Below, piece by piece: positions 1 to 44,399 of a stretch of 64,000 nt of DNA. Within the stretch, counting starts at the first letter, position 1, and every line of letters begins with the position of its first letter. Source of the DNA: Candidatus Kerfeldbacteria bacterium (GTDB lineage: Bacteria; Patescibacteriota; Patescibacteriia; SBBC01; CAIJZX01); contig CAVSWO010000002.1 in assembly GCA_963731735.1 (NCBI GenBank), positions 128,529 to 192,528 of the forward strand, given 5' to 3'. A model generated the notes under the pieces. That model was not told where the DNA came from. It ran no database searches and was given only the letters and a program-made list of their open reading frames with translations. Made by a program: the position numbers and the translations under genes.

Positions 1-378
1 GACGAATTCATTGACCGCCTCCGGCAACTGCAAATCTTTAACATGCTTGAGTTCGGTACTAATGAAATGTAGCGTCATGGCTAACGAGCCGCGCTGATAA
101 AACGCGCTGACTTTAAAGCGAACTTGCGGATTAAGGCTGTAGCCGAGCACAATTTCTTTGTTGGTTTCCAGGGTTTTACGCTGCTGCTCGGTCAAAAAAG
201 TGCTCAGGACCGATTCCATAAAGTCTTCGGAGATGATTTGCTCGTCGGCCAGCGCTTGGAGCTGACCATTCACGCGCACAATCGGCTGGCTGCCGATCAG
301 TAAATGCAAATCCGAGGCCCGTAAACCGGCCGCGGTCGTCAACATCCGATTGAGTGTAATGCTATCCGTTGCTCCCAT
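1..378 (-). CDS. pilT: Type IV pilus retraction ATPase, PilT/PilU family, N-terminal part (gene continues past window start)
   Basis: Minus-strand translation from the ATG at 378 gives MGATDSITLNRMLTTAAGLRASDLHLLIGSQPIVRVNGQLQ..., matching the conserved PilT N-terminus (ASDLHL, PIxRVxG). No stop before position 1. Not in the ORF track because it is truncated. Confidence 0.6.
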   Translation of the reverse strand, partial: MGATDSITLNRMLTTAAGLRASDLHLLIGSQPIVRVNGQLQALADEQIISEDFMESVLSTFLTEQQRKTLETNKEIVLGYSLNPQVRFKVSAFYQRGSLAMTLHFISTELKHVKDLQLPEAVNEFV

Positions 379-769
379 GGGCCTGTTGCAAGACGTGTTT
401 AATTTTATCAACCACCTCGGACGGCATGAAGTGCGCTTTAATCAAGTAATCGACCGCGCCCAGATTCAGCCCTTCGACCACATCGGATTTCTGGCCCAAG
501 TTGGTGAGTAAAATCACCGGAATGTCTTTGGTGGCGGCATCGGCCTTCAATTGTTTCAAGACATCAAAACCATTGAGTTTTGGTAGCAAGATATCAAGTA
601 AGATGAGATCCGGCTGAAACTTCTGGGCTTGATCCAGTCCGGCTTTTCCGTCAACGGCCAGTTGGGTTTCGAACTTTTCCATGCTAAGCTTGGTGACGTA
701 CATTCCGGCTAAAAACGCGTCATCTTCGATGATTAAGATTTTAGATTTCGCGAGGTCTTTATTTGGCAT
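362..769 (-). CDS. Single-domain response regulator receiver (CheY/PilH-like)
   Basis: 135 aa; ILIIEDD acidic pocket, phospho-acceptor region LILLDILLP, conserved T and K (DYLIKA). Lies between pilB and pilT. Confidence 0.8.
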   Translation of the reverse strand: MPNKDLAKSKILIIEDDAFLAGMYVTKLSMEKFETQLAVDGKAGLDQAQKFQPDLILLDILLPKLNGFDVLKQLKADAATKDIPVILLTNLGQKSDVVEGLNLGAVDYLIKAHFMPSEVVDKIKHVLQQAHGSNG

Positions 770-780: not shown

Positions 781-2535
781 TTAGGCGCGGGTCGCGTCGA
801 GAACTTCTTCAACGCTGGTAAATCCACGCAAGGCTTTAATCATCCCGTCTTGTTTCATGGTGACCATCCCCTGGTTGGCGAAAGCGGCCGTAATTTTTTC
901 AATTAAGTCACCGCCGCCAACGATAATTTTCTTCATTTCTTCGTTGATTTCCAGGACTTCAGAAATTGCCACCCGGCCCTTATAACCGGTATTTTCGCAG
1001 CGGGCGCATCCTTTTCCCTGCCACATTTTTAGCGGCGGCGTCAGGTCTATTTCTTTAGGGAGCGTCTTTTTCGATAACGGTTCCAACTCAGCCAATACTT
1101 TTTCCTGAATTTCATCCGGCATGGGAGTTTGCTGCTTACAATGCTGGCAGACCCGTCGCACCAGCCGTTGCGCCATGACCACATTCAACGAGGAGGCGAT
1201 CAGAAATGGTTCAATTTGCATATCAATCAAGCGCGGCACGGCCCCAATTGAGTCGTTGGTGTGCAAGGTGGAGAGCACGACGTGCCCGGTTAGTGCGGCG
1301 TGGACGCCTAAGGCGGCCGTTTCATTGTCGCGGATTTCACCGACCATGATAATATCCGGGTCTTGTCGCAGAATGGACCGCAAGCCGGCCGCAAACGTTA
1401 ACCCGACCTCCGGATTGACCTGCGATTGGTTAATGCCGGTCATGTAATACTCGACCGGGTCTTCAAGGGTAATAATGTTCACGCCCTCTTCATTCAGAAT
1501 ATTAAGGAGCGCGTACAAGGTGGTCGATTTACCGGATCCGGTTGGACCGGTTATCAGGAACATGCCGTGTGAGCGGGTTATTGCTTCCAGCATGACTTCC
1601 TTGTTGCGGCCTTCAAAACCCAGACCCTCAACCTTGATCAGTTCGCTGTTCGTATCCAAAATACGCATCACAACTTTTTCGCTGTTGATCAGCGGCAAGG
1701 TTGAAACGCGATAGTCAATATTGCGGCCGTCAATCACCATCCGGAATCGACCGTCCTGCGGCACCCGCGTTTCGTCAATTTTCAGGTTGGACAAGACCTT
1801 AATCCGGGCAACTAACGATGAGTGGACGTGCTTCGGGAGGGTCAACGAGGTGTGCAAGATACCGTCGATTCGGTAACGAATCCGGGTTTCATCGGCTACC
1901 GGCTCGATGTGCACGTCGGAGGCTTTGCCTTCAACCGCGTGACGCATGACGACCGAGACAATTTTTGAGACCGGCGCGGTTTTGACAACCTCCTCCAGCC
2001 CTTTATCAGAAATATCAACCGCTCCGATTTCCTTATCGGCGTCTTTCTCGGCGCCTTTCAGCGCCTCTTCCACTTCAGCCGACAAACTTTCGTACTGTCG
2101 CAAGACGTATTTGAGCGAAGCGTCGGAAGTCAGGTAATATTTGATCTGAAAATTATTCTTGCGGGCAATATACTCAATCGCTTCCAGGGCTTGAAAATTC
2201 GTCGGATCGACCATCGCAATCGAGACTTGGTTGTCGGACCGATTGAAGGCCACCATTTTGTAATTGGCCGCTAATTCCTGCGGCATGATATTCAAAATTT
2301 CGGCCCGGACAATTTTGCCGAACAAATCGACCGACGGCATGTTGTAGAGCGATGCCTTGGCTTTGAGCAGGTCCTCATCTCGAACCGCGCCCGAGTGCTC
2401 GATCACATGATCAAGCGTTTCCCGTTGCTGTTGCGCTTGGGCTTGCAATTCGCCAAGCTTGGCCGGCGTGATGGCCTTGGCCTGGAGCAGGATATCAGCC
2501 AGCGAGGCGGTCGTGGATACTTGCGGACCGGGCAT
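781..2535 (-). CDS. pilB: Type IV pilus assembly ATPase, PilB/GspE family
   Basis: 584 aa; N-terminal T2SSE_N-like region, Walker A GPTGSGKST, Walker B/Asp box DPDIIMVGEIRD, His box, tetracysteine CQHC...CARC zinc motif. Confidence 0.85.
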   Translation of the reverse strand: MPGPQVSTTASLADILLQAKAITPAKLGELQAQAQQQRETLDHVIEHSGAVRDEDLLKAKASLYNMPSVDLFGKIVRAEILNIMPQELAANYKMVAFNRSDNQVSIAMVDPTNFQALEAIEYIARKNNFQIKYYLTSDASLKYVLRQYESLSAEVEEALKGAEKDADKEIGAVDISDKGLEEVVKTAPVSKIVSVVMRHAVEGKASDVHIEPVADETRIRYRIDGILHTSLTLPKHVHSSLVARIKVLSNLKIDETRVPQDGRFRMVIDGRNIDYRVSTLPLINSEKVVMRILDTNSELIKVEGLGFEGRNKEVMLEAITRSHGMFLITGPTGSGKSTTLYALLNILNEEGVNIITLEDPVEYYMTGINQSQVNPEVGLTFAAGLRSILRQDPDIIMVGEIRDNETAALGVHAALTGHVVLSTLHTNDSIGAVPRLIDMQIEPFLIASSLNVVMAQRLVRRVCQHCKQQTPMPDEIQEKVLAELEPLSKKTLPKEIDLTPPLKMWQGKGCARCENTGYKGRVAISEVLEINEEMKKIIVGGGDLIEKITAAFANQGMVTMKQDGMIKALRGFTSVEEVLDATRA

Positions 2536-2538: not shown

Positions 2539-2814
2539 CTATTGAAATGGATTGGGATTGCCAGAATCTGCGTTGACGTTGACCGTCACGGTTTGATCGA
2601 ACGACTGGAGGTCCTGATAGCGCGCATCGTTTAAAATCGTTTCTCCGAAATTGGTAATAACGGTTCGATTACGATTTTGGTTGACCAGCATGTCGTTACT
2701 GGTCGGAGCTAGGAACTGCTGGACTAAAAACCATCCAATCCCACCCAACACCAATACGACCACGGCGATGATGATGGTGCGATTTGAACTGGTGCGACGT
2801 TTAACAAGGGCCAT
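2539..2814 (-). CDS. Small membrane protein in the pilus operon (single TM helix, Asn/Gln-rich C-terminus)
   Basis: 91 aa ORF with one hydrophobic helix (IIIAVVVLVLGGIGWFLV). Translationally coupled between pilO-like and pilB. Confidence 0.4.
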   Translation of the reverse strand: MALVKRRTSSNRTIIIAVVVLVLGGIGWFLVQQFLAPTSNDMLVNQNRNRTVITNFGETILNDARYQDLQSFDQTVTVNVNADSGNPNPFQ

Positions 2815-2816: not shown

Positions 2817-3479
2817 CTAGGAAGATGTTTTATCAGGAACGTAATACGTTCGAACTACGATGGTATAAGGTGAGGAGGTAGTTTCCGTGTCGCTGGTTTC
2901 GGCCGTGTGCGAGAAGCTGACCGATAATACGTCAAATAATCGCTGGCTGGATTCAACCAGCGTCATAAAGCGCTTGAAGGCTTCGTAACTCGTTCCGCCG
3001 GAAACGGTCAGATTAATATCTTCCGTTTTGACATCCAGCGCCGTGGCGGTACCGGCCGGCGCCGTATCCGGCGTCGTCGCGGTGGCCGATGATCCCGAGG
3101 TGCCAATCTGGCCGGATTCATTGACCGAGATAGAGGACAATTCCAAGTTGGCCGTTCGGGCAATATTTTCAAGCGTCAACAACAGGCCCGGGAAATCGGA
3201 TTCGGTCGGCAGGAAGGCGTCCACCTGGGCTAATTGATCCTGCGGTAAGGCGGCTTTAAATTTGGCCACGGATTTCTTGAGTGAGGCCAGATATTCCTGT
3301 TCACTCGACAATTCGGATTCGACGTTCGCTTTTTCCAGGATGCCGGATGTGCGCAGATTCGATATCTTCGTGTCGAGCACTAAGAAATAGCCGCCGACCA
3401 TGACCAGCACCACCAGCACCCAGACCGTCCAGCGGTAATAGTCAGTTAAGAGCGATTGGAGAAAACTTGGGAATTTCAT
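2817..3479 (-). CDS. PilO-like pilus assembly protein (N-terminal TM, coiled coil)
   Basis: 220 aa; TM near N-terminus, predicted coiled-coil region, position after the pilN-like gene; overlaps it by 4 nt. Confidence 0.45.
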   Translation of the reverse strand: MKFPSFLQSLLTDYYRWTVWVLVVLVMVGGYFLVLDTKISNLRTSGILEKANVESELSSEQEYLASLKKSVAKFKAALPQDQLAQVDAFLPTESDFPGLLLTLENIARTANLELSSISVNESGQIGTSGSSATATTPDTAPAGTATALDVKTEDINLTVSGGTSYEAFKRFMTLVESSQRLFDVLSVSFSHTAETSDTETTSSPYTIVVRTYYVPDKTSS

Positions 3480-4351
3480 GAGGTGGTGTCAGTGGTTGGT
3501 GCCTGATCCTGGAAAACCGACGGCAGAATTTGCAGATTGACGGAGAAGGTAACCTGATCGCCCAGTTCAGTCGTGGTTCGGGTGGCGCCGGTGATATCAA
3601 AGCTCGAAATGAAATCTCCGTTGGCGACCGCTTGTTCAAACACCAAATACTGCTGCGCGACGTGTTCGTAGGTGTCCGTCCGGGCGCCAAGCGTCAGGCT
3701 GCCATTGATATCCGCCGCGAACGATGTGCCGTAAAAGACTTCCGGCAGTGTATAGTGCTCAAGCTTGGCGAACATATTGGTCCAGTGGACATGGTCATCA
3801 ATCAGCCGCCGAATGGCGCTGATCTTTTGGGTGGTTTGCTGAATGGTTTTCTGCTCGCCTTTCAGATCGTCAATTTGCTGACGAACCTGCGCTAGCTCCG
3901 TTCGCTTGGTAGTAATTTGGTTGGCAATCGAGCGATCGGCCAGGCTCAAACCGAAATAGGCCAGCCCGACAACCGCCGCCGCGCCCACCATCCAGCCAAC
4001 CAATGACAGCAGCACCATCCGCGGTTTAAAGCTGGAAACCAAATCTTCCGACAGCAGGTTAACATCAAAATTGTCATCATCTTCCGGCAAGGGAATAACC
4101 GCCGGCCGGCTGGAGCGCTTTTCATTGATGATCCGCTGATCCGGTTTTGATTTGCCGAGTCCCATCCGCCCTTTATCGGCTTTGGCTTGCCCGAGCGTCG
4201 GGTTCGAATGCCCAAGCATCGATCGGAACATTTTGCCAAATCCCCCGCCGCCGGCCGTCGGGTCGGTCATTTCCGGCTGCCCCGGCTTCTTCGGCGGCTT
4301 GGGCGGCAAGTCCGGGGATTGCGTGTCGTGAATTAGGTTAACTTCCGGCAT
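3476..4351 (-). CDS. PilN-like pilus assembly protein (cytoplasmic N-tail, TM, coiled coil)
   Basis: 291 aa; Pro/Gly-rich N-terminal tail, single TM (VLLSLVGWMVGAAAVVGLAYFGL), coiled-coil segment, directly downstream of pilM. Confidence 0.45.
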   Translation of the reverse strand: MPEVNLIHDTQSPDLPPKPPKKPGQPEMTDPTAGGGGFGKMFRSMLGHSNPTLGQAKADKGRMGLGKSKPDQRIINEKRSSRPAVIPLPEDDDNFDVNLLSEDLVSSFKPRMVLLSLVGWMVGAAAVVGLAYFGLSLADRSIANQITTKRTELAQVRQQIDDLKGEQKTIQQTTQKISAIRRLIDDHVHWTNMFAKLEHYTLPEVFYGTSFAADINGSLTLGARTDTYEHVAQQYLVFEQAVANGDFISSFDITGATRTTTELGDQVTFSVNLQILPSVFQDQAPTTDTTS

Positions 4352-4360: not shown

Positions 4361-5425
4361 TTAGGCGACGATCTCCCGCATCCCCAAGCCAATCGAAACC
4401 GCGAAGCGCGGTCCAATTTCCTGGAGCACCGGCTGTAGATCAACCGGGTAGACGACGCGCGCCCACGGGTCACCGATAAACGTTTTGAGCGATAGGGTTT
4501 TTTCCAAGTATTCCGGCAGATTTAACAAAAACGATGAGCCACCGGCCAGGATAATCTTTTCAACCGGCGCCCGGCCCTGGTTACGATAGAGATTCAGCAC
4601 AAACCGAATTTCATTGATGATTGAACTTATCACAAATTCAATCGTTTTCGGAATTTGGGAAACCGATTGGCCGGTCGAAATGCCGAAGTCGCGTTTGAAC
4701 TGTTCGGCGCGTTCGAGATCGATGTTCATACTTTGGGCAATGGATTTTGAAATGGTGTTGCCGCCCACGTCGATGCTGCGGTTGATCAGCGGTATGCCGT
4801 CGACGAAAACCGCGATGTTGGTGGCCACGGCGCCGATATCGACGATCATGACCGGGGAGGAATCCGTGCCGATCAAGGATCGTTCCAGGGCCAAAGCCTC
4901 CGTCTCAAGATTGATCATCTGGAGTCCGGCGCCTTTGGCAATGTCTAAATAGCGTTTAACCAGGTTTTTCGGCGCGGCCGTGATCAGGACTTTCAGGTTC
5001 TTGGGCTGGTCGGTTTGGGCTTTCGGGTTTTTCGACGAGTTCTCTTTGATTAATTTCCAGTCTAACACCAATTCATCGATCGGCAGGGGCACGAATTTCT
5101 TGGCTTCCCAGCGGACGGCTGCATTCAATTCTTTGCGGGTCATCAGCGGTAAACTGATGATCGAACTGAAAACCGTGAAGCTTGGCAGGGCGGTAATCGC
5201 CTTATTTGAGGTAAATCCGGCGTGTTTGATTAGCGATTTTAGCGCGCTGATGACCGCTTCCTTGCCGGCCGTGGCGTCGCTTTTGACTATATCGAACTTC
5301 TCTTCGACGTAACCGTAGGTCATCAAACGCGGCCGACCATTATCGTCGCCCATTTGGACCACTTTGATACTTGAGGTCCCGATATCGATGCCAAGAAAAC
5401 TTTGTTTTGGGTTGAATGTTGCCAT
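4361..5425 (-). CDS. pilM: Type IV pilus assembly protein PilM (actin-like ATPase fold)
   Basis: 354 aa; N-terminal GIDIGTSSIKVV phosphate-1 motif and actin/FtsA-like architecture typical of PilM. Confidence 0.8.
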   Translation of the reverse strand: MATFNPKQSFLGIDIGTSSIKVVQMGDDNGRPRLMTYGYVEEKFDIVKSDATAGKEAVISALKSLIKHAGFTSNKAITALPSFTVFSSIISLPLMTRKELNAAVRWEAKKFVPLPIDELVLDWKLIKENSSKNPKAQTDQPKNLKVLITAAPKNLVKRYLDIAKGAGLQMINLETEALALERSLIGTDSSPVMIVDIGAVATNIAVFVDGIPLINRSIDVGGNTISKSIAQSMNIDLERAEQFKRDFGISTGQSVSQIPKTIEFVISSIINEIRFVLNLYRNQGRAPVEKIILAGGSSFLLNLPEYLEKTLSLKTFIGDPWARVVYPVDLQPVLQEIGPRFAVSIGLGMREIVA

Positions 5426-5614
5426 AACGGCGGGTCAGCAAATCGGTGAATCTGGCCGGCCCGAATGTTGAAAAGAAGTCGTGCGAGACCGCTTTAGTAT
5501 GGCACAAAAAATGGTCAAAGTCAAAATAACCGCTACCTGTGGAGAACTTTCCAGGTACAAAAACTCCTTGCGATTGTTCGTTTCGCCTTCTGTCCCGATA
5601 ATGTTACTCGATGC

Positions 5615-8600
5615 TTACGGCCCGGTGCTGACACTACTTGGTAGCACGCCGGCGAAGTCGCGAAAACCTTGCGGCGGATTGGATTGCAGCCGACCGTCGT
5701 TGATGATGACTTCTGACGGCAACGGCGTTTCAACCGTGCCGGCGAAGGTCCGGGCGAAATAGAATTTATGAGCCAGCATTATCCCCCGAACCGTCAACGG
5801 GAAATTGTTTGGTAAATTGCGGGTAACGGTACACTCCGTCGGCGGTGAATCACCATTGTCCGGTTGGCCGGTGCATATCGTTCCGGTCACATAATAATTG
5901 CCGGCCAGCTCGGTCACGCCGTTATCAATGATCAGATTGCCTTTGACAACAACCATCAAGGATGCTAATTGACGGAGAAGCGTTATTGACGGTGATAGAG
6001 AATACACAATATCTTTATCGATCCGCAGGTTACCATTTATAATCAGGGTTCCCGCCCCGCTGACAAAACTGGAACCACTCAAGCCACCGTTAAGAATAGT
6101 GAAACTCCTGTCGATTGTGTAGGTTTGCGTGCCACCCGCCTTACCCGCGACGAACACTTTATCCTGGAGTTTGGTTGTCGAATTACCTGCACCAATCATT
6201 GCATCCACAATGCTCCCACCGCTGTCGCCAAGCGATGTGACTGTTTGACCAAATTTATTAGTCTTATTTGTGGAGTCTGTCACCGTCTCTGCGCCCTGTA
6301 AATCAATCCGGCCGAGCGCGGTTTCAAACAAGTTTTTTTGTGACGCAAACGGAGTAAACGACGCGTTATTTTTTTCGGTGTCATAGGTCGCGACTTGATC
6401 AACGGTCAGCGAGGAGCAAAAATTATTTATCGAGCCGCCGGCCGAAACTACGTAACTGGCGTTACACAAATTGCCAGGCGCCGGCAACGTATCCGGGGCG
6501 CCAATGTTCCCCTGCGAGTAGACATCACCCAGTCGGGTCTGAATATAGCGGCGAGTCCCTTTAATCACATTCCCGAAATTCAACCAGCCGTAATCCGGGC
6601 TCCAGGCATAACCGGAGAATTGTCCGGTGATCGTATCCAGGTTTACCCCGTATTGATCGCATAAGGCGCCGGCGGCGCTACAGGTCGCACCTGTAAAACT
6701 GCACGTCCCACCGTTGCATTGAGTGTCATTCGTGCAAGCGTCGTAGGCATTGGTTGATTCACTCGAGCAGAAAGAGGCCGGCTTACAAGATTCATTCGCC
6801 GTGCACTCCGAATCCACCGTGCAAGTATTTTTCGTGATATCTCCACCACAATATTTCGTACAGCTTGCCGCCTCAGGTTGACAACTCCGCTGGTCCCCAT
6901 CTTGGCAAAAAGCACAAGACAGGTCACCACCGCTTAAGGCACAGGCCTGACAGGCAATCAATGAATACGTACCGCCGATGTTCACTGGCGTTGGTGTATT
7001 AACGGGTTTTCCACGTAAACTAATCCAACCGCGGGAACTATCGCCGTTCGGGTCACTCGAATTGGCCAAGGTCATGAAGCGGCCAACGCCCTGCAATTTT
7101 CCGGTTGTTGCGTCCAGGCAGGCGCCGCCGTTGTCGCAGTAATTGCGTTCCCCAGATCCAGCCTCAAGTTCGGCCGGCGGTGTTCCAATATCATTAGCAT
7201 CAAAGCTCAACCAACCGCCGCCGGCGCAGGCCAGCGAACTGGCATTGTTTTCGTCACACTGCAATCGCGTATTCGGCAGACTTTGCAATTTTGAGCTGCC
7301 GACGCTGGCCCCGCTCGGCAAATCAGCCGAGCCGAACGTACAATCCGCGTCATGTAAACAAATGAAACTTTGATCGTATTCGCAGTGCCCGTAACAATCA
7401 AAATCACGCAAGCAGGCACGTGTATCATCCTCCTGACAGGTGCGGGTGGCTGGATTGCATGATCCGGTCATGGTGTACGTAGTGGCTGGTTGCGGTAAAT
7501 CCGGATCTCGCGCATTGGCGCCCTGGCAGCTGCCGAGAGCGATCGTTTCGTTGTCCGAATTACTGTTTCCGGCCGCGTAATTTTTTCCGAACCAGGCGCG
7601 TCCGCTCAAACGATTATCCTCGAGCGTCAATCCGTAGGCGTCAATTTGCCGCTGGCAAAGGGATACGCTGTTCCCATCCCGTTGATTTAAACAGCTAGTC
7701 GAAATCCAGCCCAACCCGGCATTTTGCCCGCCGTTGGCCGGACTTGCATTGCCGGCCCAGACATAGCCCGAGACGTTGCCGGACACCCGTTGGAGCAACA
7801 AACTGCTCGGCCCGACCGCAAAGGCGTGCTGCTGTCCGATAGCGCTGACCGCATATAATGGATCACTGGTATTAGCGGCAGACTCAACCCGGCTGGAGAG
7901 GCTTAAAAAATTTCTGTCAGAATAAATAATACTAGTTCCATTATCTCCGACGGCCGTTATTTCTGCTCCCACCAGGGAATTCGCTGACGGGCTGTCCACC
8001 TGTTCAACACGGAGATTATCACACCAAACTTTCGCTCCATAGGTCGCTTCGCAGCTAACTTGGAGCTGCATGCCAAAATACCCAATCCGCGGGTTGGAAG
8101 TGGCGCCCTTAATCGGATTGGCGTATTGATTATTTTCCTGGGAAACAACCATTTCAAACGGAATATAGCCGTCGGTCGCGCCCTGGTTGATGGTCCGAAT
8201 TTGCGTCCGATTTTCGAACGCGCAGTCCGGAGCGGTGGCCTGCCCGACGTTACCTCCGACGCATCCAATCGCGATGCCGCCCTGGGGAATGGTTGCGGCC
8301 GGGTTCGGAGCAACGGTACCGGGAAATTCCACCTTGTATTCGCCGGAAATTTTATAGCGAATGCCCGGAATTGTTGAAAGGCGGATGGTGTTCACCGCTG
8401 CAACCGAATGTTTCGTGTTTCCATTTGTTCCATTCGTACAATCGGATATGCTTGAATAGGTGGGTCGTGGTTCAAGCATCAACGCGTAATTGCTTCCCCC
8501 TGACCCAACTTCGGTCGAGATCTGGATTTCTTTGGTACTAATACCGACTTTATTGCTCCCCCCATCGCAACCAGTGCTGCTGAAACCGCCGGCGCCCTCA

Positions 8601-9853
8601 TCAGTAAGGGTCCAAACACTTGGATTCACATATTCACCGGAAGGGTTTGACGATTCCCAAGATTCGAAGTTGCCATTGCGCAAGAGGTTGGATGATGAAC
8701 CCTGTTGAATTGGAATGCTTGAAACATCATGCAAGATGGTCTCGCTGGGAGCGATCTGCGTAAAACCAGCGGCAGATTGTTTCTCACTCAGCCGCCACAA
8801 ACCGTTGCTGGCCGCAACGTAGACCATATTGGCAAGCGGTCCGTTCGTCGAATCAGTAGGATAGTCAGTCGTTTGGACCGTCACCCCGAAGAAACATACT
8901 CCCGAAGCAGAACCGACTTCTGTAACTTGATTGCCGACGACTTTATACAAATGCCCGGATTGAGCACCCGCATTGGTACAGTTTCGATCAAGTTCACCCG
9001 TATTCGATGTCGTGGTGGTGATATAAGCGGTTCGATTTTCCCCAAAAGCGATATCGGTGATATGTTCGGTGCTCGGAATTGGCGAACAAAGTTTTTTCCA
9101 GGTATCCTTCGTATCCGTTATTGAATCATAATATTTGGTATGTTGGAGGAGTAATCCGTTCTTACCCCCTGCTAACATGGGCGTTCGGTAACCTTTAGCC
9201 GCGGCAATCGCGTACAATTCGTTGTCTACCGCGGGATTATTACCTCCCGAACAAGTGGTGTCTTCAAGATATGATGGCAGGGTGGCATTGAGGTCAGGAT
9301 TGGTGGCGGACGTATTTGCATAATCTAGAATAGTGGTCGTTGCTGAACCTGATCCGTCTACATAATTTGTCTGTTTTCCAGCAAACCAAATTTCGGAATT
9401 ACCGCTGCCGGTGTTATATTGCCCGGTGACGGCGTTTTGTTCACCAAGGGTACCGATAGCTGCGGTGACCTGGTTTCCTGAAGAATTAATACGAGTGAGT
9501 GACGTCATCGTTCGCTGCCGCCAACGCTGACCGTCAAACCGGTAGATGCTTCCATCAAAAACGTTTGCTCCGGCTTTGTCTTTATTCTGTCCCACCGCCC
9601 AGGCTTCAAAGAGCTGATTCGAAGTTACGCTAGCTTCTGGGTCGTACGGGTCATTGCGTCTGCTGACTGACCCATCCACCCGGTAATACGAATAAACTCC
9701 CCGAAAATCGGTCGGGGAAAAGTTAGTGGTGGTAATCAGCGGCACAGCTAATTCGGCCATGGTCCGTTGTACGCCCAAGAACACTCCGGTCATGGCAATC
9801 AAAGCGATAATTAGAGAGGCCGGGAATCGGTATCGATGAATCAAACGACGCAT
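5615..9853 (-). CDS. Giant (1412 aa) secreted or cell-surface Cys-rich protein in the pilus operon; candidate pilus-associated adhesin (PilY1-analogous by position only)
   Basis: Intact 4.2-kb ORF; N-terminal basic region plus hydrophobic helix (RYRFPASLIIALIAMTGVFLGV); several Cys-dense segments. Starts 3 nt after the stop of paralog A and is followed by pilM. Confidence 0.7.
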   Translation of the reverse strand: MRRLIHRYRFPASLIIALIAMTGVFLGVQRTMAELAVPLITTTNFSPTDFRGVYSYYRVDGSVSRRNDPYDPEASVTSNQLFEAWAVGQNKDKAGANVFDGSIYRFDGQRWRQRTMTSLTRINSSGNQVTAAIGTLGEQNAVTGQYNTGSGNSEIWFAGKQTNYVDGSGSATTTILDYANTSATNPDLNATLPSYLEDTTCSGGNNPAVDNELYAIAAAKGYRTPMLAGGKNGLLLQHTKYYDSITDTKDTWKKLCSPIPSTEHITDIAFGENRTAYITTTTSNTGELDRNCTNAGAQSGHLYKVVGNQVTEVGSASGVCFFGVTVQTTDYPTDSTNGPLANMVYVAASNGLWRLSEKQSAAGFTQIAPSETILHDVSSIPIQQGSSSNLLRNGNFESWESSNPSGEYVNPSVWTLTDEGAGGFSSTGCDGGSNKVGISTKEIQISTEVGSGGSNYALMLEPRPTYSSISDCTNGTNGNTKHSVAAVNTIRLSTIPGIRYKISGEYKVEFPGTVAPNPAATIPQGGIAIGCVGGNVGQATAPDCAFENRTQIRTINQGATDGYIPFEMVVSQENNQYANPIKGATSNPRIGYFGMQLQVSCEATYGAKVWCDNLRVEQVDSPSANSLVGAEITAVGDNGTSIIYSDRNFLSLSSRVESAANTSDPLYAVSAIGQQHAFAVGPSSLLLQRVSGNVSGYVWAGNASPANGGQNAGLGWISTSCLNQRDGNSVSLCQRQIDAYGLTLEDNRLSGRAWFGKNYAAGNSNSDNETIALGSCQGANARDPDLPQPATTYTMTGSCNPATRTCQEDDTRACLRDFDCYGHCEYDQSFICLHDADCTFGSADLPSGASVGSSKLQSLPNTRLQCDENNASSLACAGGGWLSFDANDIGTPPAELEAGSGERNYCDNGGACLDATTGKLQGVGRFMTLANSSDPNGDSSRGWISLRGKPVNTPTPVNIGGTYSLIACQACALSGGDLSCAFCQDGDQRSCQPEAASCTKYCGGDITKNTCTVDSECTANESCKPASFCSSESTNAYDACTNDTQCNGGTCSFTGATCSAAGALCDQYGVNLDTITGQFSGYAWSPDYGWLNFGNVIKGTRRYIQTRLGDVYSQGNIGAPDTLPAPGNLCNASYVVSAGGSINNFCSSLTVDQVATYDTEKNNASFTPFASQKNLFETALGRIDLQGAETVTDSTNKTNKFGQTVTSLGDSGGSIVDAMIGAGNSTTKLQDKVFVAGKAGGTQTYTIDRSFTILNGGLSGSSFVSGAGTLIINGNLRIDKDIVYSLSPSITLLRQLASLMVVVKGNLIIDNGVTELAGNYYVTGTICTGQPDNGDSPPTECTVTRNLPNNFPLTVRGIMLAHKFYFARTFAGTVETPLPSEVIINDGRLQSNPPQGFRDFAGVLPSSVSTGP

Positions 9854-9856: not shown

Positions 9857-10672
9857 CTAGGGATATAAACCAATACACCCGGTGGCGCTGCTGCCATTGG
9901 CGCAAAAACAACGGGGGGTCGGATCAACCGCGGAACAATCGTTTAGGCCACCCCCGTTCACGTCATCACCCACCCGAATTGGGGTGCCATCCAGTATTCC
10001 GGCATCCAGGGTTGAACCGATGCCATCATTGCCGCTGTACCACACCGGTAATTGGGTGCTGTCGTAAGCGGATTTCACGGTTAACTGGCCATTGACCTGT
10101 AAATCCCCGCCAATTTCAATCGCATCGTTTGAACTCAATGCGTAGCCGGAAGGGTTGATGTTTGAGATATAGAGCGCGGCCGCCGGATTATCAGCCACCA
10201 AACTGACGGTTGGGTTGGTGCTTGAACCGCCGGTCAGCTGGACTCCCCAACTTTTATCAACCGGAAGTAAACGCAGGCCCAGCAGTTCCCAGGTTCCACC
10301 GCCGCCATCAGCCGGCCAAGTGTTCCGACACGCCCCGCCTAAGCAGACACTGCCGGGTACATCCACATTCACCGCAGCGCCCGAACGGCTAAACTTGACC
10401 GAGAGGTTGGCGGCCAAAGACGAGGGGCGCAGATAAATATCCGACGATGATGAGGCGATGTCCTGCCCGGTGGCGCCCAGTTCAAAATAGCTGTCACCCG
10501 TGCCGCCGGGAACAATCGCCACCACCCCTTGATAGGCTGCCGCTCGGGTGGTCGCACCGGGTGACACCGGCGCGGCCATCGCCGAGGTTGCCAACAATCC
10601 GCCCGCCATCAGCAAGGCGATACCGGCGGTCAACCAGTTCATCCATCGAGAATTGTTGCGGACGGTTTGCAT
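9857..10672 (-). CDS. Secreted Cys-loop-motif protein, paralog A of a six-gene tandem family
   Basis: ORF 9857..10795; most likely start at Met42 (10672), 2 nt after paralog B stop. Sec-type signal MNWLTAGIALLMAGGLLATSAMA. Motif VCLGGACRNTWP. Confidence 0.6.
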   Translation of the reverse strand: MQTVRNNSRWMNWLTAGIALLMAGGLLATSAMAAPVSPGATTRAAAYQGVVAIVPGGTGDSYFELGATGQDIASSSSDIYLRPSSLAANLSVKFSRSGAAVNVDVPGSVCLGGACRNTWPADGGGGTWELLGLRLLPVDKSWGVQLTGGSSTNPTVSLVADNPAAALYISNINPSGYALSSNDAIEIGGDLQVNGQLTVKSAYDSTQLPVWYSGNDGIGSTLDAGILDGTPIRVGDDVNGGGLNDCSAVDPTPRCFCANGSSATGCIGLYP

Positions 10673-10674
10673 AG

Positions 10675-11544
10675 TTAAATATGATTCCACATTGGCGCGC
10701 ATTTCTTTCCGATATCGGTGGCTACACACAAGCAGGCCAACGTTTTGTCTCCACCCGGATTTGGTTGGCCAAACGGACCGAGAATGCTGGCGCATGATGC
10801 AGCGGGTTCCAGCGTGACATTCTCAAAGTCGCCAAATGGTGACACGTAGCGGTCGGCATCAAGTCCTGAACCTTCACCTTGGTGCGGCGCAATACCCGCC
10901 GCCGGATATCCCGGATGCCAAACCTCGCTTCCATTCACGTAAATTTTTCTTCCCACTACCGTCTCCCCATCCGAAAATACGTTGCCGTCGGCTTGCATGG
11001 CTTGGGATAATCCGCTAGTGTCCCGATTAATAACCTGTAATCCGTAATACCCCGAACCATGAACATCCAGAGCGGGTCCGTTCTGGACACGCTGGCTTGA
11101 GGTTCCAACGCCGAGCGCGTAGGTAGCCGTATTGGGTTCCAGGTAGCCACTGTTGACCTGCCAATAATTGCCGCCGCCGGCCGTCGGCCAGACATCCCGG
11201 CAATCCTGGCTGCCGCTCCCGTTTAAACAGAGTTTCCCGGTTATCAAGACGTCTTCGGCGCTCCCATTTTTGAAAAAACGGATGCCTCGAGATTCCGGAA
11301 GCTGGGGACGAAAATAGAGGTCGCCGGTTGAGCCAATGTCCCGCCCGTTGTTACCGATCTCCATGGCTTGGCTGCCGTCCAATATCGTCAGGACTCCGCC
11401 ATAGACGCCAAGTTTTGTAAACGGCGCGCTGTTCGGCCCGTTCGTAATTGGCCCGGCCTGGGCTGGCAACATAGTAACCAGCGCGATGACGGCGATCAGG
11501 CCGAGAGCTAACCAGGTGTGAGATGTGAATCGGAGACGCAACAT
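10675..11544 (-). CDS. Secreted Cys-loop-motif protein, paralog B
   Basis: 289 aa; signal MLRLRFTSHTWLALGLIAVIALVTMLPAQA; mature N-terminus GPITNGPNSAPFTKLGVYGGV parallels paralog C; motif LCLNGSGSQDCRDVWP. Confidence 0.65.
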   Translation of the reverse strand: MLRLRFTSHTWLALGLIAVIALVTMLPAQAGPITNGPNSAPFTKLGVYGGVLTILDGSQAMEIGNNGRDIGSTGDLYFRPQLPESRGIRFFKNGSAEDVLITGKLCLNGSGSQDCRDVWPTAGGGNYWQVNSGYLEPNTATYALGVGTSSQRVQNGPALDVHGSGYYGLQVINRDTSGLSQAMQADGNVFSDGETVVGRKIYVNGSEVWHPGYPAAGIAPHQGEGSGLDADRYVSPFGDFENVTLEPAASCASILGPFGQPNPGGDKTLACLCVATDIGKKCAPMWNHI

Positions 11545-11545
11545 A

Positions 11546-13045
11546 CTAGTTAAAATTTTCCGTACAAATATCAGCCCCTTGTCCGGCTACCGAATTATAA
11601 AATGTTTTATCATTCGTTAATCGACAATCACACGAGCACGTAAAATTATTCGTATTCCCATCATACGAGCAAGCGGATTGCCCGCAGCTGCCGGTATTGT
11701 AATGAATAGAGCTGCCGGTAAACGAACAGCTGGGGTCTTGGGTCCCCTGACATTTAAATCTCGCGGAGCATTCGGTATTGCAGCGACTGTTATCGCAACT
11801 TATCGGTAACCCCTGATACAAAACCATATACTGTAATAAATCACCGTACAGGCAAAAATCCGTCCCCGGCGGGCCGCAATCATCATTATAGGTACAGCTG
11901 GTGCTGTTATTATTTGCACAATGACCTTGGCCAACATCAACACCAGGTTCGGGATCTTTGGCACATATTTGGGCCTGCGCCGAACAGAGTTGGGAACAAG
12001 TCCCGCCGGGACAGTCCCCTGCGCTGGAACAAGTTCCGCCGGGACAGTCCCCTGCGCTGGAACAAGTTCCGCCGGCATTGCTGCCCCCCACACAAAGTTG
12101 GGAACAAGTTCCGCCGGCATTGCTGCCCCCCACACAAAGTTGATTGTCGGGGGTGTGCAGACAAAGGTATTCAAGATTTGATCCGGTGTTAGTTTCAATA
12201 TCTTTCCAGAATAAATCGTGATAATTTCCGGCCGCGTGGCTGGCTTTGGTGAAGGGTAAATTCGTCGTTCCATCAAACGTGTCGGCATCGACGCCTCCAT
12301 AATTATCATTTTCTGCATTCCAGGGGACCACCGCATAGGTATAGCCGTAGGAATACAAGGTTGGATAGCGAACCTGGTAATTCCCGTTCACTAGGGTGCT
12401 GCCGCCGACGTAATTGCCGCTGCCGGGATCATACCCGGTGGTAATGCGCTTGGTTACTTGGACGGCCGAGCCGGCATAATTGGCGTAGATTTCTCCGGCT
12501 TGGCCGCTGGAGGACGGGATCGGGTTGGTAAATGTACCAATCCGGATGCCGTTATTCCCGTCGGTCGGCTGCAAGTTCGACGGAGAGCCGGCAACTTGCC
12601 AATTCGGGTCGCTAGCACCGCCAGCTGACCAGGCGCTCCGGCAATTTGATAATGTTCCTAAACAAATTTGGCCGCTCGGGATACTGAAATTCGCTTTGCC
12701 GGACCCGCTGTCTTTGTAGATGTAGGCAATGTTATTCGGAAAGGTGTCCGAGGGACTCGTATACGTTGGCTGCATTGCTCCCGGGCGCAGGAAAATATCT
12801 CCGGTTGAAGCAATCTCTCGTCCGGCGTTTCCGAACTCCATCACGCTGTCCGTCGCACCGCCGGGAATGATCGTGATTACACCTTGGTAGACGCCGATCT
12901 TAGTGAAGGGCTCACCATACTGATTGGTTAACGGTCCGGCCTGGGCGGTTCGGGTAATCAATCCTGCCACGATGACAACCAGTCCAGCCACTGTCACAAT
13001 GCTTGGCCAACTCCGGTATGAAAATATGGTGCGTTTCCGGGGCAT
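11546..13045 (-). CDS. Secreted Cys-loop-motif protein, paralog C, containing in-frame tandem repeats
   Basis: ORF 11546..13111; probable start at internal Met (13045), giving signal MPRKRTIFSYRSWPSIVTVAGLVVIVAGLITRTAQA. Mature GPLTNQYGEPFTKIGVYQGV; motif ICLGTLSNCRSAWS; C-terminal Cys-rich region. Confidence 0.65.
   Translation of the reverse strand: MPRKRTIFSYRSWPSIVTVAGLVVIVAGLITRTAQAGPLTNQYGEPFTKIGVYQGVITIIPGGATDSVMEFGNAGREIASTGDIFLRPGAMQPTYTSPSDTFPNNIAYIYKDSGSGKANFSIPSGQICLGTLSNCRSAWSAGGASDPNWQVAGSPSNLQPTDGNNGIRIGTFTNPIPSSSGQAGEIYANYAGSAVQVTKRITTGYDPGSGNYVGGSTLVNGNYQVRYPTLYSYGYTYAVVPWNAENDNYGGVDADTFDGTTNLPFTKASHAAGNYHDLFWKDIETNTGSNLEYLCLHTPDNQLCVGGSNAGGTCSQLCVGGSNAGGTCSSAGDCPGGTCSSAGDCPGGTCSQLCSAQAQICAKDPEPGVDVGQGHCANNNSTSCTYNDDCGPPGTDFCLYGDLLQYMVLYQGLPISCDNSRCNTECSARFKCQGTQDPSCSFTGSSIHYNTGSCGQSACSYDGNTNNFTCSCDCRLTNDKTFYNSVAGQGADICTENFN
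11993..12142. repeat. In-frame tandem direct repeats inside paralog C: 2 x 33 nt (11993-12025, 12026-12058; 1 mismatch) followed by 2 x 42 nt (12059-12100, 12101-12142; identical)
   Basis: Read directly in the sequence. Units begin ggaacaagt(c/t)ccgccgg...; they encode SAGDCPGGTCS x2 and QLCVGGSNAGGTCS x2 on the minus strand. Confidence 0.9.
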
Positions 13046-13046
13046 G

Positions 13047-13934
13047 CTATTGGCAATCAAAACTAAATTGATCTTCCTGAATTTCCGGCCAACAGAGTCC
13101 GTCGTTATCATAAATTGGGCTAATGGAAACTTTCATAGGTCCGCCCGCTACGACTGATTCAAATTGCCAGGCCGCATTGGCTACGCCGTTCCCCGTCCCG
13201 GTCCAGGCGAGCCCGCCTTCAACCGGTAATCCTCCGACTGCAATCGGTTGGATCAACGGCGGATTGGCAGTTTGGACTTTGACGTACGGGTCAACCGTAA
13301 TTGATCCAAGATCGCTCCAAGCGGAAATACATTGCCCGCTCGGACTCTCGCCCGCGCCTTTACCGCGTTTTGTAATACCGTTCAAGCAGAGTAAACCAGG
13401 ATTGGAATTCTTATCTTGTTCAACGCTCAAGATGCCAGAAAAACGCGCCGCGAAAGCCCCGCGGTCGAGGTCATCGGTCGCGAAGATGCCCACTTGTGTA
13501 CCGAGTACTCCGATAGCCGGATCGGCAATCACCGTTGCAGCCGGCGTACCGCCTGAACCTTGGAGTGCCGCGTACCCGGTTTGTCGATAGGGTGTATAGG
13601 AATCTATGAGTGATGGATCGTCAACGAGTTGATCAGGATTAACCTTGACCAAGGCACCGCCGACACTGCCACCTAAGTCGCTCCAGGCGGTGATACAGTT
13701 GCCGTTTGGATCCGAACCGTTCAGACACAGCGCGGCTTGATTGACCGTGTCACCGATTACCAAAGAACCAAGCTTAACTTGTGTGTTGCTTGAGGTATCG
13801 AGAAAGGTTGCGCTCCGTCCGCCCGGCGGTGTTGAACTGGGTTCCACGTAGATCGCAATCGCCGGCGCGGCAATCGCCAAACCCAAAATGATCAAGATCG
13901 CCAGGCTGGTGGATGGTACACGCAAGGTCAACAT
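13047..13934 (-). CDS. Secreted Cys-loop-motif protein, paralog D (two motif copies)
   Basis: 295 aa; signal MLTLRVPSTSLAILIILGLAIAAPAIA; mature IYVEPSSTPPGG; motifs ALCLNGSDPNGNCITAWSDLG and LLCLNGITKRGKGAGESPSGQCISAWSDLG. Confidence 0.65.
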   Translation of the reverse strand: MLTLRVPSTSLAILIILGLAIAAPAIAIYVEPSSTPPGGRSATFLDTSSNTQVKLGSLVIGDTVNQAALCLNGSDPNGNCITAWSDLGGSVGGALVKVNPDQLVDDPSLIDSYTPYRQTGYAALQGSGGTPAATVIADPAIGVLGTQVGIFATDDLDRGAFAARFSGILSVEQDKNSNPGLLCLNGITKRGKGAGESPSGQCISAWSDLGSITVDPYVKVQTANPPLIQPIAVGGLPVEGGLAWTGTGNGVANAAWQFESVVAGGPMKVSISPIYDNDGLCWPEIQEDQFSFDCQ

Positions 13935-13935
13935 A

Positions 13936-15594
13936 TTATGGAGTTAAGGTTCCGCCCCCTCCGCCGCCTGAGGAGAACGTGGCGGTCACTGATTTATCAC
14001 CGTTCATGAGTATACTACAGCTCTGACCCGAGCAGGCGCCGCTCCAGCCGGTAAATGTATAGCTGGGGAGAACAATTGTATCTAACGTTTCCGTAATCCC
14101 ATACTCATACACGACTTGCGTGCTGGTACATGACGTGCTGCAGACAAAGCTGTTATTGTTGCCCAGGACACCGCCGGCACTGGTCGGGCCGGACTTGGTT
14201 ACATTCAGGTGCACCACCTTGATGGAATCGGTGGCGGCGTTCGAGTAGCGGGGGAAATGGTTACCTTGGTAGGCGCGATAATAATAGGTTGTACCGGATA
14301 CCACGTTGCTGTCGCCGGAGATACTGACCGATGATCCGCCGTTAACGCTGCCGGCGTAGATGATTGTGCTGCCGCCGACCGTCATGCCGGTGTAATACAG
14401 CCGACCATTCTGCGGCTCGAATGGATCGCTGGCATCGGTACTGCGGGTTACCAGGAGTTGAACGGTCCCGCTCGGGCTCTGCGAACCGGTCGTGATGGAG
14501 AATTTTACTTCATTCTCTAAGGTATAGAGTGAAAGCGTCGGCTGACCGACGGTCGCACAATCAATCGGGCAGTTCCCCTCCGAGGCGCAAAAGCCGTCGC
14601 CGCAGGTACACGGCGCCGAGCCGCAGGATGGTGTGGTGGAAAACCCATACGGATCACCGGCCAGAATCGAACCAACCGATCCGACGCCGTTGCTTGAATC
14701 GGTAACCGTTGAGGCAGTCAAGGATACACCGCCGTATTGTTTCGAGGCGGTGCCATAACTAAACGGCGCGCCGGCCGTAGATTTGCGTAAACGCACATAG
14801 ATAGTGCCTGAGCCGGTTAAATCCTCCCAGGCTGAAATACAACTTGATCCCCCGGTTCCGTTTAGGCACAACTGCCCCGAAGAATATCCGTTATACGGAT
14901 AGGTGTTGCCGGAAATCAGGAGGTTCCCGGCAAATCGGCCGGCCACATTATTGGCATTGCCGCCGTTGGTCGCGTAGATTCCATACAGATTAGACTGCTC
15001 GCCGGGTGACCCGGAATTCGGGGCGGTACAGTCAGAACTTCCGGTACAGGATGATTGTTGATCCCCCGAACAAAAACATGATTCTTGGGTTGACTGGCTT
15101 CCGCAAGGAACCTCATTAGCGCTCGGGTCCAGTTCAACGCACTGGTGCGGCGCCGCAATCACGGCTGAATAATTTTGCTGATCACCGGTTGAGGTAACGC
15201 GCGCGAAGCCGGCCTGGGTATCATAATTGCCATAGCTATTCGGGTTACTGCTGGGTGCGGCTTTATTCAGACGCACGAATTGTCCGCCCAAGGCCGAATC
15301 AATTTGATCCCAGCTACTGATACAGTTTGTCGAATCTCCGGTCCCAACGCCGGCTGTCGGATTTAAACATAAAACGTTACTGCCGCTGCCAATGGTCAGG
15401 TCGCCGGCTTTTTTTTGCGCGCTATCCGAAGCGTTCAAAGGTGGCGCGATTTGACCGTCGGGCGGGTTGTCGGGACGTGGAATATACGAATAGGCGGGTT
15501 GGGTGACCCAAAAGATGCCGCCAAACAACGCGACCAAGAGCACGAAAATACTGGGTAAACGTAGTCGGGTCATGGGCTGCAATCGCTCGGACAC
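13936..15594 (-). CDS. Secreted Cys-loop-motif protein, paralog E (552 aa, two motif copies)
   Basis: Signal MTRLRLPSIFVLLVALFGGIFWV; mature AYSYIPRPDNPPDG; motifs VLCLNPTAGVGTGDSTNCISSWDQ and QLCLNGTGGSSCISAWEDL. Confidence 0.65.
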   Translation of the reverse strand: MSERLQPMTRLRLPSIFVLLVALFGGIFWVTQPAYSYIPRPDNPPDGQIAPPLNASDSAQKKAGDLTIGSGSNVLCLNPTAGVGTGDSTNCISSWDQIDSALGGQFVRLNKAAPSSNPNSYGNYDTQAGFARVTSTGDQQNYSAVIAAPHQCVELDPSANEVPCGSQSTQESCFCSGDQQSSCTGSSDCTAPNSGSPGEQSNLYGIYATNGGNANNVAGRFAGNLLISGNTYPYNGYSSGQLCLNGTGGSSCISAWEDLTGSGTIYVRLRKSTAGAPFSYGTASKQYGGVSLTASTVTDSSNGVGSVGSILAGDPYGFSTTPSCGSAPCTCGDGFCASEGNCPIDCATVGQPTLSLYTLENEVKFSITTGSQSPSGTVQLLVTRSTDASDPFEPQNGRLYYTGMTVGGSTIIYAGSVNGGSSVSISGDSNVVSGTTYYYRAYQGNHFPRYSNAATDSIKVVHLNVTKSGPTSAGGVLGNNNSFVCSTSCTSTQVVYEYGITETLDTIVLPSYTFTGWSGACSGQSCSILMNGDKSVTATFSSGGGGGGTLTP

Positions 15595-23163: not shown

Positions 23164-23253
23164 TGGCGGAGGCGGTAGGATTCGAACCTACGAGGAGCTT
23201 GCACCCCTAACGGTTTTCAAGACCGTCGCTTTCGACCACTCAGCCACGCCTCC
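23164..23253 (-). tRNA. tRNA-Ser (anticodon TGA), type II with long variable arm, CCA encoded
   Basis: Minus-strand sequence GGAGGCGTGGCTGAGTGGTCGAAAGCGACGGTCTTGAAAACCGT...GTAGGTTCGAATCCTACCGCCTCCGCCA; 7-bp acceptor stem, anticodon arm ACGGT-CTTGAAA-ACCGT. Confidence 0.85.
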
Positions 23254-30238: not shown

Positions 30239-30338
30239 GGACGCGACAGATAGTCATAATGTCCACCTGCCTATCTTAAAAGAGCTTTTATCATAAGATT
30301 CGCCGTAGAAAGTGTATGAAAAAATCTTTTCTTGTGGG

Positions 30339-31817
<1,479 letters not shown>

Positions 31818-44123: not shown

Positions 44124-44399
44124 ATGTTCAAACGCGTCCCTGTTCAGAAACTCACTGGTCAAGAAACTTTCCACCAGACGGGAGAGAAGAAGTTCAACGT
44201 GTTGGAGTTCTGGCAGTATGGTTTCTCGAACCTGAACTCAAATGTTTTGCGCGGAGCATTGGCCGAGTTCATTGTTGAGAACGCCCTCAAAGACGTAAAG
44301 GACATCAACATCAGAAACCCGTGGGGCGACTCCGATAAAAGATTGAGTTGGCGGAGAGGGAGAGATTCGAACTCTCGATACGGGTTTAACCCCGTATAA
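44124..44399 (+). other. Short ORF that runs into the tRNA-Ser(GCT) gene; likely a gene remnant at the island/tRNA junction
   Basis: 91-aa ORF whose last about 17 codons overlap the tRNA (44349-44442). The first 70 aa look protein-like (FNVLEFWQYGFSNLNSNVLRGALAEFIVENALKD) but no domain is recognised. Confidence 0.3.

Follow-up and report, generated by a model that had tools for sequence, protein, structure and literature searches.

Patescibacteria account for a large share of bacterial diversity and are apparently attached to other cells, and the way in which they recognise their hosts is largely unknown beyond a few cultured Saccharibacteria. In model systems, the type IV pilus (T4P) proteins PilY1/PilC are encoded together with the minor pilins and not beside pilM. 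ComZ of Thermus is a tip-associated pilin (PMC6561018), and the beta-solenoid of a cyanobacterial PilX, which resembles both ice-binding proteins and ComZ, has been proposed to act as a 'tip plug' replacing PilY1 (preprint, bioRxiv 10.64898/2026.02.12.705559). The TM7x proteins PilX1 (jelly-roll) and PilX2 (propeller) are lectin-like and carry no PilD signal, PilX2 being needed for host binding (PMC11623550), and Streptococcus sanguinis PilB (vWA) and PilC (lectin) are modular pilins (bioRxiv 10.1101/2021.01.27.428410). In this work, a further candidate is described in a 64,000-nucleotide (nt) stretch of DNA, hereafter the window, from Candidatus Kerfeldbacteria bacterium (GenBank assembly GCA_963731735.1, contig CAVSWO010000002.1, positions 128,529 to 192,528). 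The label X designates open reading frame (ORF) 5615-9853 of the window and its product of 1412 amino acids (aa). X belongs to an unannotated family (records named 'hypothetical protein', without a Pfam domain) that provides the first gene of the main T4P cluster in most of the sampled relatives.

We consider it likely that X is exported, is built like an adhesin and has a functional tie to the T4P system, and it is a strong candidate for an adhesin by which Patescibacteria grip their hosts. The more specific proposal, namely that X is a Sec-exported, disulfide-stabilised modular adhesin of a Patescibacteria-specific family working with a type IVa pilus, is put forward tentatively, its chances standing a little short of even.

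Linkage of the X family to the pilus gene cluster

The window ORF analysis displayed a single unbroken reading frame over 5615-9853, in keeping with the preliminary description of this DNA, which had announced an intact ORF devoid of frameshifts. G, S, T, A and N are abundant in the product. When 1.84 billion representative sequences were scanned exhaustively with HMMER, using aa 214-1412 as query, 429 proteins reached E<=1e-3 and 70 of these also E<=1e-30. About 28 relatives are full-length (1400-1680 aa) and 37-45% identical to X, and the frame is therefore not a chance ORF. The remaining relatives have only the last ~330-450 residues in common with X; in front of these stand unrelated N-terminal parts, among them hairpins of the GWAWSENxGWISLNC type, Cys repeats (CGDG...CDDGN) and further modules. 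ORFs containing the C-terminal domain measure between 471 and 2996 aa; their C-terminus is constant whatever the variable N-terminus, and the minimal members (~470-600 aa) consist of the signal, hairpins and the predicted solenoid described below. A word-indexed homology search with full-length X or with the 28-sequence alignment returned the query alone, probably because low-complexity Cys/Gly/Ser words swamped the candidate list. The same type of search with the C-terminal alignment retrieved 8 proteins, 'hypothetical' or unnamed, with no Pfam domains.

No match to X was obtained in Pfam, NCBIfam, PHROGs or the PDB sequences, nor with profiles against the PDB sequences; Pfam was scanned with the whole protein at E<=0.1 and with four separate segments at E<=10. 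Relatedness to an unrelated class of enzymes, one of the two findings by which the preliminary description would have considered its suggestion refuted, was thus not found in any of these collections. Matches under threshold in single homologues were to PSII_BNR or PA14. All the relatives that could be located are Patescibacteria (Kerfeldbacteria, Falkowbacteria, Microgenomates, Parcubacteria and unclassified Patescibacteria metagenome-assembled genomes), some of the records being mislabelled 'uncultured Gammaproteobacteria'. From Saccharibacteria, no locus with the C-terminal domain was recovered and the matches were confined to the hairpin motif. Membership of this 'pilM-upstream solenoid' family was defined by a signal peptide, at least one GxAW..GWIxF hairpin and a C-terminal domain of ~310 aa with the invariant pattern G..R..E..DGR..N. 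X displays this combination together with a gene position directly upstream of pilM, and is best filed as a member of a previously undescribed Patescibacteria family; no paper describing it was found, which is weak negative evidence as the literature coverage was incomplete.

The genes concerned in the window are the following:

5615-9853, minus strand: ORF X, intact member of the unnamed Patescibacteria family, 1412 aa plus stop, ATG start
4361-5425, minus strand: pilM, next gene downstream of X (PF11104, E 4e-44)
3476-4351, minus strand: pilN-like gene, from position and synteny
2817-3479, minus strand: pilO (PF04350, E 9e-5)
2539-2814, minus strand: 91-aa protein with a single transmembrane segment, between pilO and pilB, conserved in related loci
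781-2535, minus strand: pilB, extension ATPase (TIGR02538, E 5e-173)
362-769, minus strand: response regulator, conserved in the pilus cluster (ORF list, related loci)

That pilM follows X had been correctly recognised in the preliminary description. The response regulator is the last pilus-cluster gene before the end of the window. At the most closely related locus, L001 (Candidatus Kerfeldbacteria), pilT and pilC come next, followed by genes for a canonical pilin (KKGFTLIELLVVIAIIGILS...), for a polytopic membrane protein and for another pilin-like product, and two Logan contigs with precomputed Pfam labels read X-PilM-x-x-x-PilB-response regulator-PilT-PilC-N_methyl pilin-Peptidase_A24-pilin. 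The complete type IVa order in relatives is pilM-N-O-small-pilB-response regulator-pilT-pilC-pilin (KKGFTLIELL)-PilD-pilin. From the gene order in the window and in these relatives, X therefore heads a complete type IVa pilus cluster.

This linkage was quantified from both sides. The X-anchored sample comprises 30 loci of GTDB species representatives containing the C-terminal domain, obtained by a locus scan from an 8-sequence alignment. In 24 of them, pilM lies directly downstream on the same strand, separated by 7-365 nt, and in a further one it lies 2 kb off. Among the other five, four are similar to this latter locus but their sequence extends less than 1.75 kb downstream, and the fifth has pilB 2.3 kb off. 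A PilM-anchored sample was assembled to guard against ascertainment bias: 80 metagenome loci were collected with a PilM alignment and searched with a hidden Markov model of the C-terminal domain, 57 being informative (at least 600 bp upstream of pilM). The domain is present in the ORF directly upstream of pilM in 48/57 (gap 7-549 nt), and 5.6 kb upstream in one. The co-conservation with pilus genes that the preliminary description had proposed to check is thus present in both samples. It spans lineages whose PilM proteins are only 44-50% identical and is not universal.

The hairpin motif GxAW(S)xxxGW(I/L)x(F/L) also occurs in many other Patescibacteria proteins, Saccharibacteria included, and in one record from Phycisphaerales; it is apparently an unnamed extracellular repeat of wide occurrence. 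None of the loci with the hairpin motif only (L033, L036-L068) adjoins pil genes, and the linkage is therefore specific to the C-terminal domain.

Export signal, cysteines and domain architecture

The segments of X were delimited as follows, a slash marking the cleavage position:

9755-9853, minus strand: signal peptide, aa 1-33; basic n-region, h-region ASLIIALIAMTGVFLGV, signal peptidase I (SPase I)-type site RTMA/ELAVP
8699-9754, minus strand: variable N-terminal all-beta region, aa 34-385; predicted beta-propeller blades (AlphaFold2, Foldseek)
7988-8698, minus strand: predicted beta-sandwich (lectin/CBM-like), aa 386-622, from DSSP of the model; starts NLLRNGNFESW, 6 conserved Cys
7778-7987, minus strand: further propeller-like strands, aa 623-692 (DSSP strands 594-656 of the model)
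6659-7777, minus strand: stalk, aa 693-1065; three G[YRV]xW...GW[IL]S hairpin units and two Cys-dense insertions
6557-6658, minus strand: last hairpin unit, aa 1066-1099; YGVNLD..GYAWSPDYGWLNF, common to every family member
5618-6556, minus strand: conserved C-terminal domain, aa 1100-1412; predicted beta-solenoid, about three strands per coil

The N-terminus consists of MRRLIHRYRFP, the 17-residue h-region ASLIIALIAMTGVFLGV and QRTMA/ELAVP, with a small-x-small cleavage site. An SPase I-type site of the form [ST]-x-A/[ED]-[FY]-E, placed behind an h-region of 12-20 residues, is kept in 26 of the 28 full-length homologues, which gives substance to the N-terminal anchor or signal noticed beforehand. 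The prepilin motif G/F[TS]L[IL]E is absent from X, and the same motif scan did detect the canonical pilins of related loci. The residues behind the h-region form beta strands, with a Pro at position 37, so that neither a pilin fold nor a class III signal is present; X was accordingly rejected as a pilin. Sortase anchoring was rejected as well, since the ALPxxxxxP sequence stands at the extreme C-terminus with no hydrophobic tail after it. Once the signal is cleaved, X has no membrane anchor, and Pfam revealed no known wall-binding domain.

X contains 44 Cys in total, and the multiple Cys-dense modules of the preliminary description resolve into two, aa 776-876 (10 Cys) and aa 968-1065 (18 Cys). 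They are inserted in the stalk, whose hairpin units are found at aa 696/715, 751/880 and 922/942. Of the 28 stalk Cys, 26 are conserved in at least 90% of the homologues, as are 34 of the 44 over the whole protein when compared to the 28 full-length homologues, and the Cys number is even in 26/28 of these family members. Such conservation, combined with even counts, fits about 20 structural disulfides in an exported protein. Disulfide machinery of the MdbA/VKOR type is enriched in genomes of the candidate phyla radiation (CPR) (Meheust et al., bioRxiv 10.1101/335083).

Structures were predicted with AlphaFold2 using family alignments, for aa 34-1095 (pLDDT 80.9, pTM 0.84) and aa 1041-1412 (pLDDT 87.6, pTM 0.84), and were compared to the PDB with Foldseek. 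About 23 beta strands were assigned by DSSP to aa 34-385. A beta-propeller, one of the folds for which a search had been advised, is predicted in this N-terminal region, and a weak Pfam match to Beta-prop_HVO_0234 (E 1.8e-4) falls under the cut-off. The two other features for which a search had been advised did not turn up in X: no vWA domain was detected in Pfam or NCBIfam, and no calcium-site motif was found. Judged from the model, the sandwich appears to be inserted in the propeller. Its NLLxNGxFExW start is one that we take to resemble CBM4_9; the region (aa 385-625) gave no Pfam match even at E<=10, CBM_4_9 included. The Foldseek matches of the N-terminal model are propeller or propeller-plus-sandwich proteins at E 1e-8 to 1e-5 (endo-arabinanase 8ic1 at E 1.3e-8, GH43, GH32, integrin alpha headpieces and (trans-)sialidases), with template modelling (TM) scores of 0.13-0.19 by query and 6-10% identity; we read them as generic fold similarity rather than enzyme homology.

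In the C-terminal model, triplets of short strands (193/204/211, 227/235/242 and 258/267/275, model numbering) would build a roughly three-sided solenoid. Its only PDB neighbours, all weak, are ice-binding-like solenoids, the best being the DUF3494 ice-binding protein 6bg8 (E 7.7e-3, probability 0.90), and ComZ of Thermus thermophilus (6qvi; probability 0.66, TM 0.31-0.34, 10-12% identity). A viral structure library gave no meaningful match to this model. The residues G1357, R1368, E1381, D1386-G-R1388 and N1392 of this domain are invariant in the family. Identity among the 28 full-length members amounts to 27% in the propeller, the least conserved part, 34% in the sandwich, 39% in the stalk, 57% in the last hairpin, the most conserved part, and 50% over the last 160 aa. 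The propeller is variable and lineage-specific, and it is the predicted C-terminal beta-solenoid, rather than the propeller, that is tied to the pilus genes.

Upstream array, X-pilM spacer and other features of the window

Two further features flank the X gene:

9857-10795, minus strand: paralog A, last gene of the secreted-paralog array, with its stop 3 nt before the X start
5496-5524, minus strand: pilM promoter in the X-pilM spacer, sigma-70-type TTGACT-N17-(TG)CCATACT with TG extension

The stop codon of paralog A occupies 9857-9859 and the junction to the X start reads TAG ATT ATG. The distance from the X stop to the pilM start is 189 nt (spacer 5426-5614). When 8 orthologous spacers were aligned, their sole conserved block proved to be the promoter, TTTGAC-N17-TGnTATAcT, followed by a non-conserved leader of ~70-100 nt up to the pilM start. 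Due to this conservation, pilM is considered to have its own promoter, and X to be grouped transcriptionally with the paralog array. Coupling on both sides of X, as claimed in the preliminary description, therefore holds for the 3-nt gap after paralog A only; translational coupling between X and pilM was rejected in view of the 189 nt and the conserved promoter between them.

The array itself (9857-16490, minus strand) encodes six secreted paralogs in two families, A/B/C and D/E/F, with 25-34% identity. These proteins have Sec signals and conserved mature N-termini of the type GPITNGPN... or Y[VI]EP..PP.G, and the motif xLCLNG...C..W recurs in them. Homologous arrays occupy the same place, between LemA/p154 and X, in related Kerfeldbacteria-type loci. 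No Pfam match was obtained for the paralogs except one InlB B-repeat in paralog E, and there is no pilin among the six. X displays no BLAST similarity to them and was rejected as an array paralog. As listed, several ORFs begin 25-121 nt inside the gene before them, and their true starts are therefore probably internal. In paralog C, adjacent near-perfect tandem duplications (11993-12142; 33 nt x 2.5 at 98% and 42 nt x 2.0 at 100%) encode repeated Cys-rich peptides (QLCVGGSNAGGTCS, SAGDCPGGTCS), which looks like a recent repeat expansion in a surface protein.

Elsewhere in the window, a full-length LOOT RNA (Rfam RF03000) is found at 43390-43511 on the plus strand (76.5 bits, the gathering score being 46.4), a 197-aa ORF (43529-44122) lies just downstream of it, and tRNAs are located at 23167-23253, 44352-44442 and 44479-44552. 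From a reading of the translations, the region 46653-63070 (minus strand) contains a cluster resembling a type IV secretion or conjugation system, with a VirB4-like ATPase (53189-55135), a large polytopic VirB6-like protein (59110-61893) and a 1006-aa protein (46653-49673) whose N-terminal repeats are beta-helix-like and whose C-terminal region resembles a lytic transglycosylase. The latter has a transmembrane segment (...GGIRWVTAxGNxG...) in common with a 358-aa ORF (50862-51938), 53-61% identical. The region 28682-31805 (minus strand) lies within a low-GC stretch (0.43-0.45 compared to ~0.52 elsewhere); four overlapping ORFs there (28682-30238) appear to be pieces of one solute-binding-protein gene, and two more (30712-31805) pieces of a prolyl-tRNA-synthetase-like gene, which may be due to frameshifts, pseudogenes or assembly errors. 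Between 34800 and 36400, only short, mutually overlapping ORFs of odd composition are present on both strands, and no Rfam family was found at gathering threshold; GC skew is strongly negative at 32-36 kb.

Role of X and comparison with known pilus-associated proteins

The proposed role of X as a modular adhesin working with the pilus can be briefly summarized as follows. Signal peptidase I would remove the signal peptide during Sec export, X not being a pilin. About 20 conserved disulfides would then stiffen the stalk of GxAW...GWIxF hairpins, and the C-terminal beta-solenoid together with the preceding hairpin would constitute the module engaging the pilus apparatus. The solenoid would most likely dock on the minor-pilin tip complex, in the manner of the C-terminal domain of PilY1 or of the ComZ/PilX solenoid. 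Since X is not a pilin, we infer that it would join the fibre in PilY1 style, i.e. by capture by the minor-pilin complex after Sec export. The fast-evolving head made of propeller and sandwich would be the ligand-binding end, probably recognising host-cell glycans. The adhesin reading was favoured because of the combination of a constant pilus-linked tail, a rigid stalk stapled by disulfides and a fast-evolving lectin-like head. A constant tail, a hypervariable lectin-like head and many conserved disulfides are also the expected look of a host-specificity determinant. The pilus was retained as the partner on three independent grounds: X stands at the head of the cluster, the tail model has ice-binding-like solenoids and ComZ as its only structural neighbours, and the TM7x PilX1/PilX2 proteins provide a precedent.

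A number of observations weigh against this proposal. Contact of X with pilins is something that we infer. The X gene and the pilin genes occupy opposite ends of the cluster, X standing beside the genes of the alignment complex (pilMNO) and the pilins being encoded 8-10 kb away, after pilC, in related loci. In the lineage of the window, X stands outside the pilM operon, whose conserved promoter is its own. In 8 of the 57 PilM-anchored loci, X is missing and unrelated genes are found in its place; the pilus can therefore exist without it. No C-terminal structural match in the PDB reached E<=1e-3 with Foldseek (TM 0.25-0.34), and the weak ones could reflect a generic beta-solenoid. Finally, no carbohydrate-binding family was detected in X by sequence (Pfam, segments at E<=10).

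The position immediately beside pilM-pilN-pilO, instead of the pilins, would suit an accessory protein fixed in the envelope at the pilus base, such as a collar, portal or anchor, whose solenoid would bind the PilN/PilO ectodomains, or the wall or S-layer at the fibre exit, and whose head would be displayed beside the pilus. The conserved members of ~470-600 aa would suggest a core structural role without an adhesive head, and these organisms have no secretin by which the fibre could cross the envelope (Meheust et al., bioRxiv 10.1101/335083). Such a role is nevertheless unlikely, given that X has neither a membrane anchor after cleavage nor a known wall-binding domain, that eight related pilM loci do without it, and that the extreme variability of its N-terminal part in size and sequence is more typical of a ligand-binding protein. 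The separate conserved promoter of pilM, the transcriptional association of X with other secreted paralogs through a 3-nt gap and the presence of the hairpin repeat in many proteins away from pil loci could, on the other hand, point to a general surface adhesin or envelope protein physically unrelated to the pilus, its gene being adjacent only as a result of a common role in host attachment combined with co-regulation or co-inheritance. This explanation appears quite unlikely: the adjacency persists at PilM identities of 44-50% and with gaps down to 7-40 nt, which is more than co-regulation would lead one to expect where genomes are small and rearranged, as in the CPR, and it tracks one specific domain and not the adhesin-like parts.

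X might also be a cargo of the pilus machine, that is an exoprotein pushed through the wall or S-layer in the style of a type II secretion piston, with the C-terminal domain as recognition element. TcpF of the Vibrio TCP pilus and PulA, encoded beside the pul genes, are precedents. A Sec signal, a folded disulfide-rich ectodomain and a gene beside those of the machine would be expected of such a substrate, and one conserved domain borne by otherwise very different proteins has the look of a secretion-recognition module. We hold this to be improbable, as each cluster contains only one such gene and there is no outer membrane to cross (bioRxiv 10.1101/335083); release and retention of the protein fit the data alike. 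A glycan-degrading enzyme (propeller glycosidase and/or beta-helix lyase) that would open the host's or the cell's own wall for the pilus was considered in view of the best N-terminal Foldseek matches, which are glycoside hydrolases and (trans-)sialidases (8ic1, GH43 and GH32 among them), of the PL6 alginate lyases found among the C-terminal ones and of the invariant R/E/D/R/N cluster near the C-terminus. It is very improbable, because the low TM scores and identities of the former denote a generic propeller match, the lyases were matched at probabilities of 0.03-0.07, no glycosidase or lyase family was detected by Pfam, NCBIfam or PDB profile search, and the propeller is the least conserved part of the protein.

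Returning to the modular adhesin, its C-terminal solenoid could represent a third, independent way to cap or prime a type IV pilus, with a Sec-exported non-pilin placing a ComZ/PilX-like solenoid plug on the minor-pilin tip. We regard this extension as doubtful. If true, the secretin-less, ultrasmall Patescibacteria would gain a head for host recognition that can be swapped and comprises 0.5 to 3 thousand residues, and the X family would be the main host-range determinant in a large part of the CPR.

Comparison with the described systems was performed feature by feature. X resembles the TM7x (Nanosynbacter lyticus) proteins PilX1 and PilX2 in being a T4P-associated protein of Patescibacteria, and is predicted to contain both kinds of module. 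The latter were nevertheless reported to adopt a pilin 'lollipop' fold and to bear their accessory domains at the C-terminus, and their genes lie among the pilins, whereas X is ~3-5 times larger, has no pilin helix, carries its accessory domains at the N-terminus and possesses a predicted solenoid. S. sanguinis PilB and PilC similarly illustrate the grafting of adhesive modules on a pilus-associated carrier in a monoderm T4P, but they are bona fide PilD-processed pilins and X is not. The similarity to the DUF3494 ice-binding proteins lies in the best Foldseek match, 6bg8, and in solenoids with about three strands per coil; in contrast to them, X has no Pfam PF11999 match, a TM score of only 0.25-0.5 and no long flanking helix in DSSP. 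ComZ and cyanobacterial PilX possess a bulky, triangular beta-solenoid with ice-binding-like structural neighbours, to which the predicted solenoid of X may correspond, the match to ComZ being weak. Both are however true pilins: their signal is of class III, they have an N-terminal alpha1 helix, and their solenoid forms an insertion in the pilin fold, while X has a Sec signal and no pilin fold.

The PilY1/PilC proteins of Pseudomonas, Neisseria and Myxococcus are, like X, large non-pilins with a Sec (SPase I) signal and a propeller somewhere in the chain, and their conserved C-terminal domain is proposed to meet the machine while the variable N-terminal part is adhesive. The roles of the parts differ: the propeller of PilY1 is the conserved C-terminal dock, whereas that of X is N-terminal and variable and its conserved module is a predicted beta-solenoid. 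The PilY1/PilC domain PF05567 is absent from X (Pfam, whole protein at E<=0.1, segments at E<=10), and X was rejected as a PilY1 homologue, having neither this domain nor vWA. The preliminary description had likened X by position to a PilY1/PilC-type adhesin. This positional analogy fails, as X is encoded beside pilM rather than with the core minor pilins and the pilin genes are at the far end of the cluster; the pilus linkage and the adhesin-like build can be retained, and the likeness to PilY1 is one of logic, extending neither to homology nor to gene position. On our best reading, X combines a PilY1-like logic with a ComZ-like fold, working most like PilY1/PilC without being a member of that family, and would thereby broaden the known routes by which pili acquire an adhesive module.

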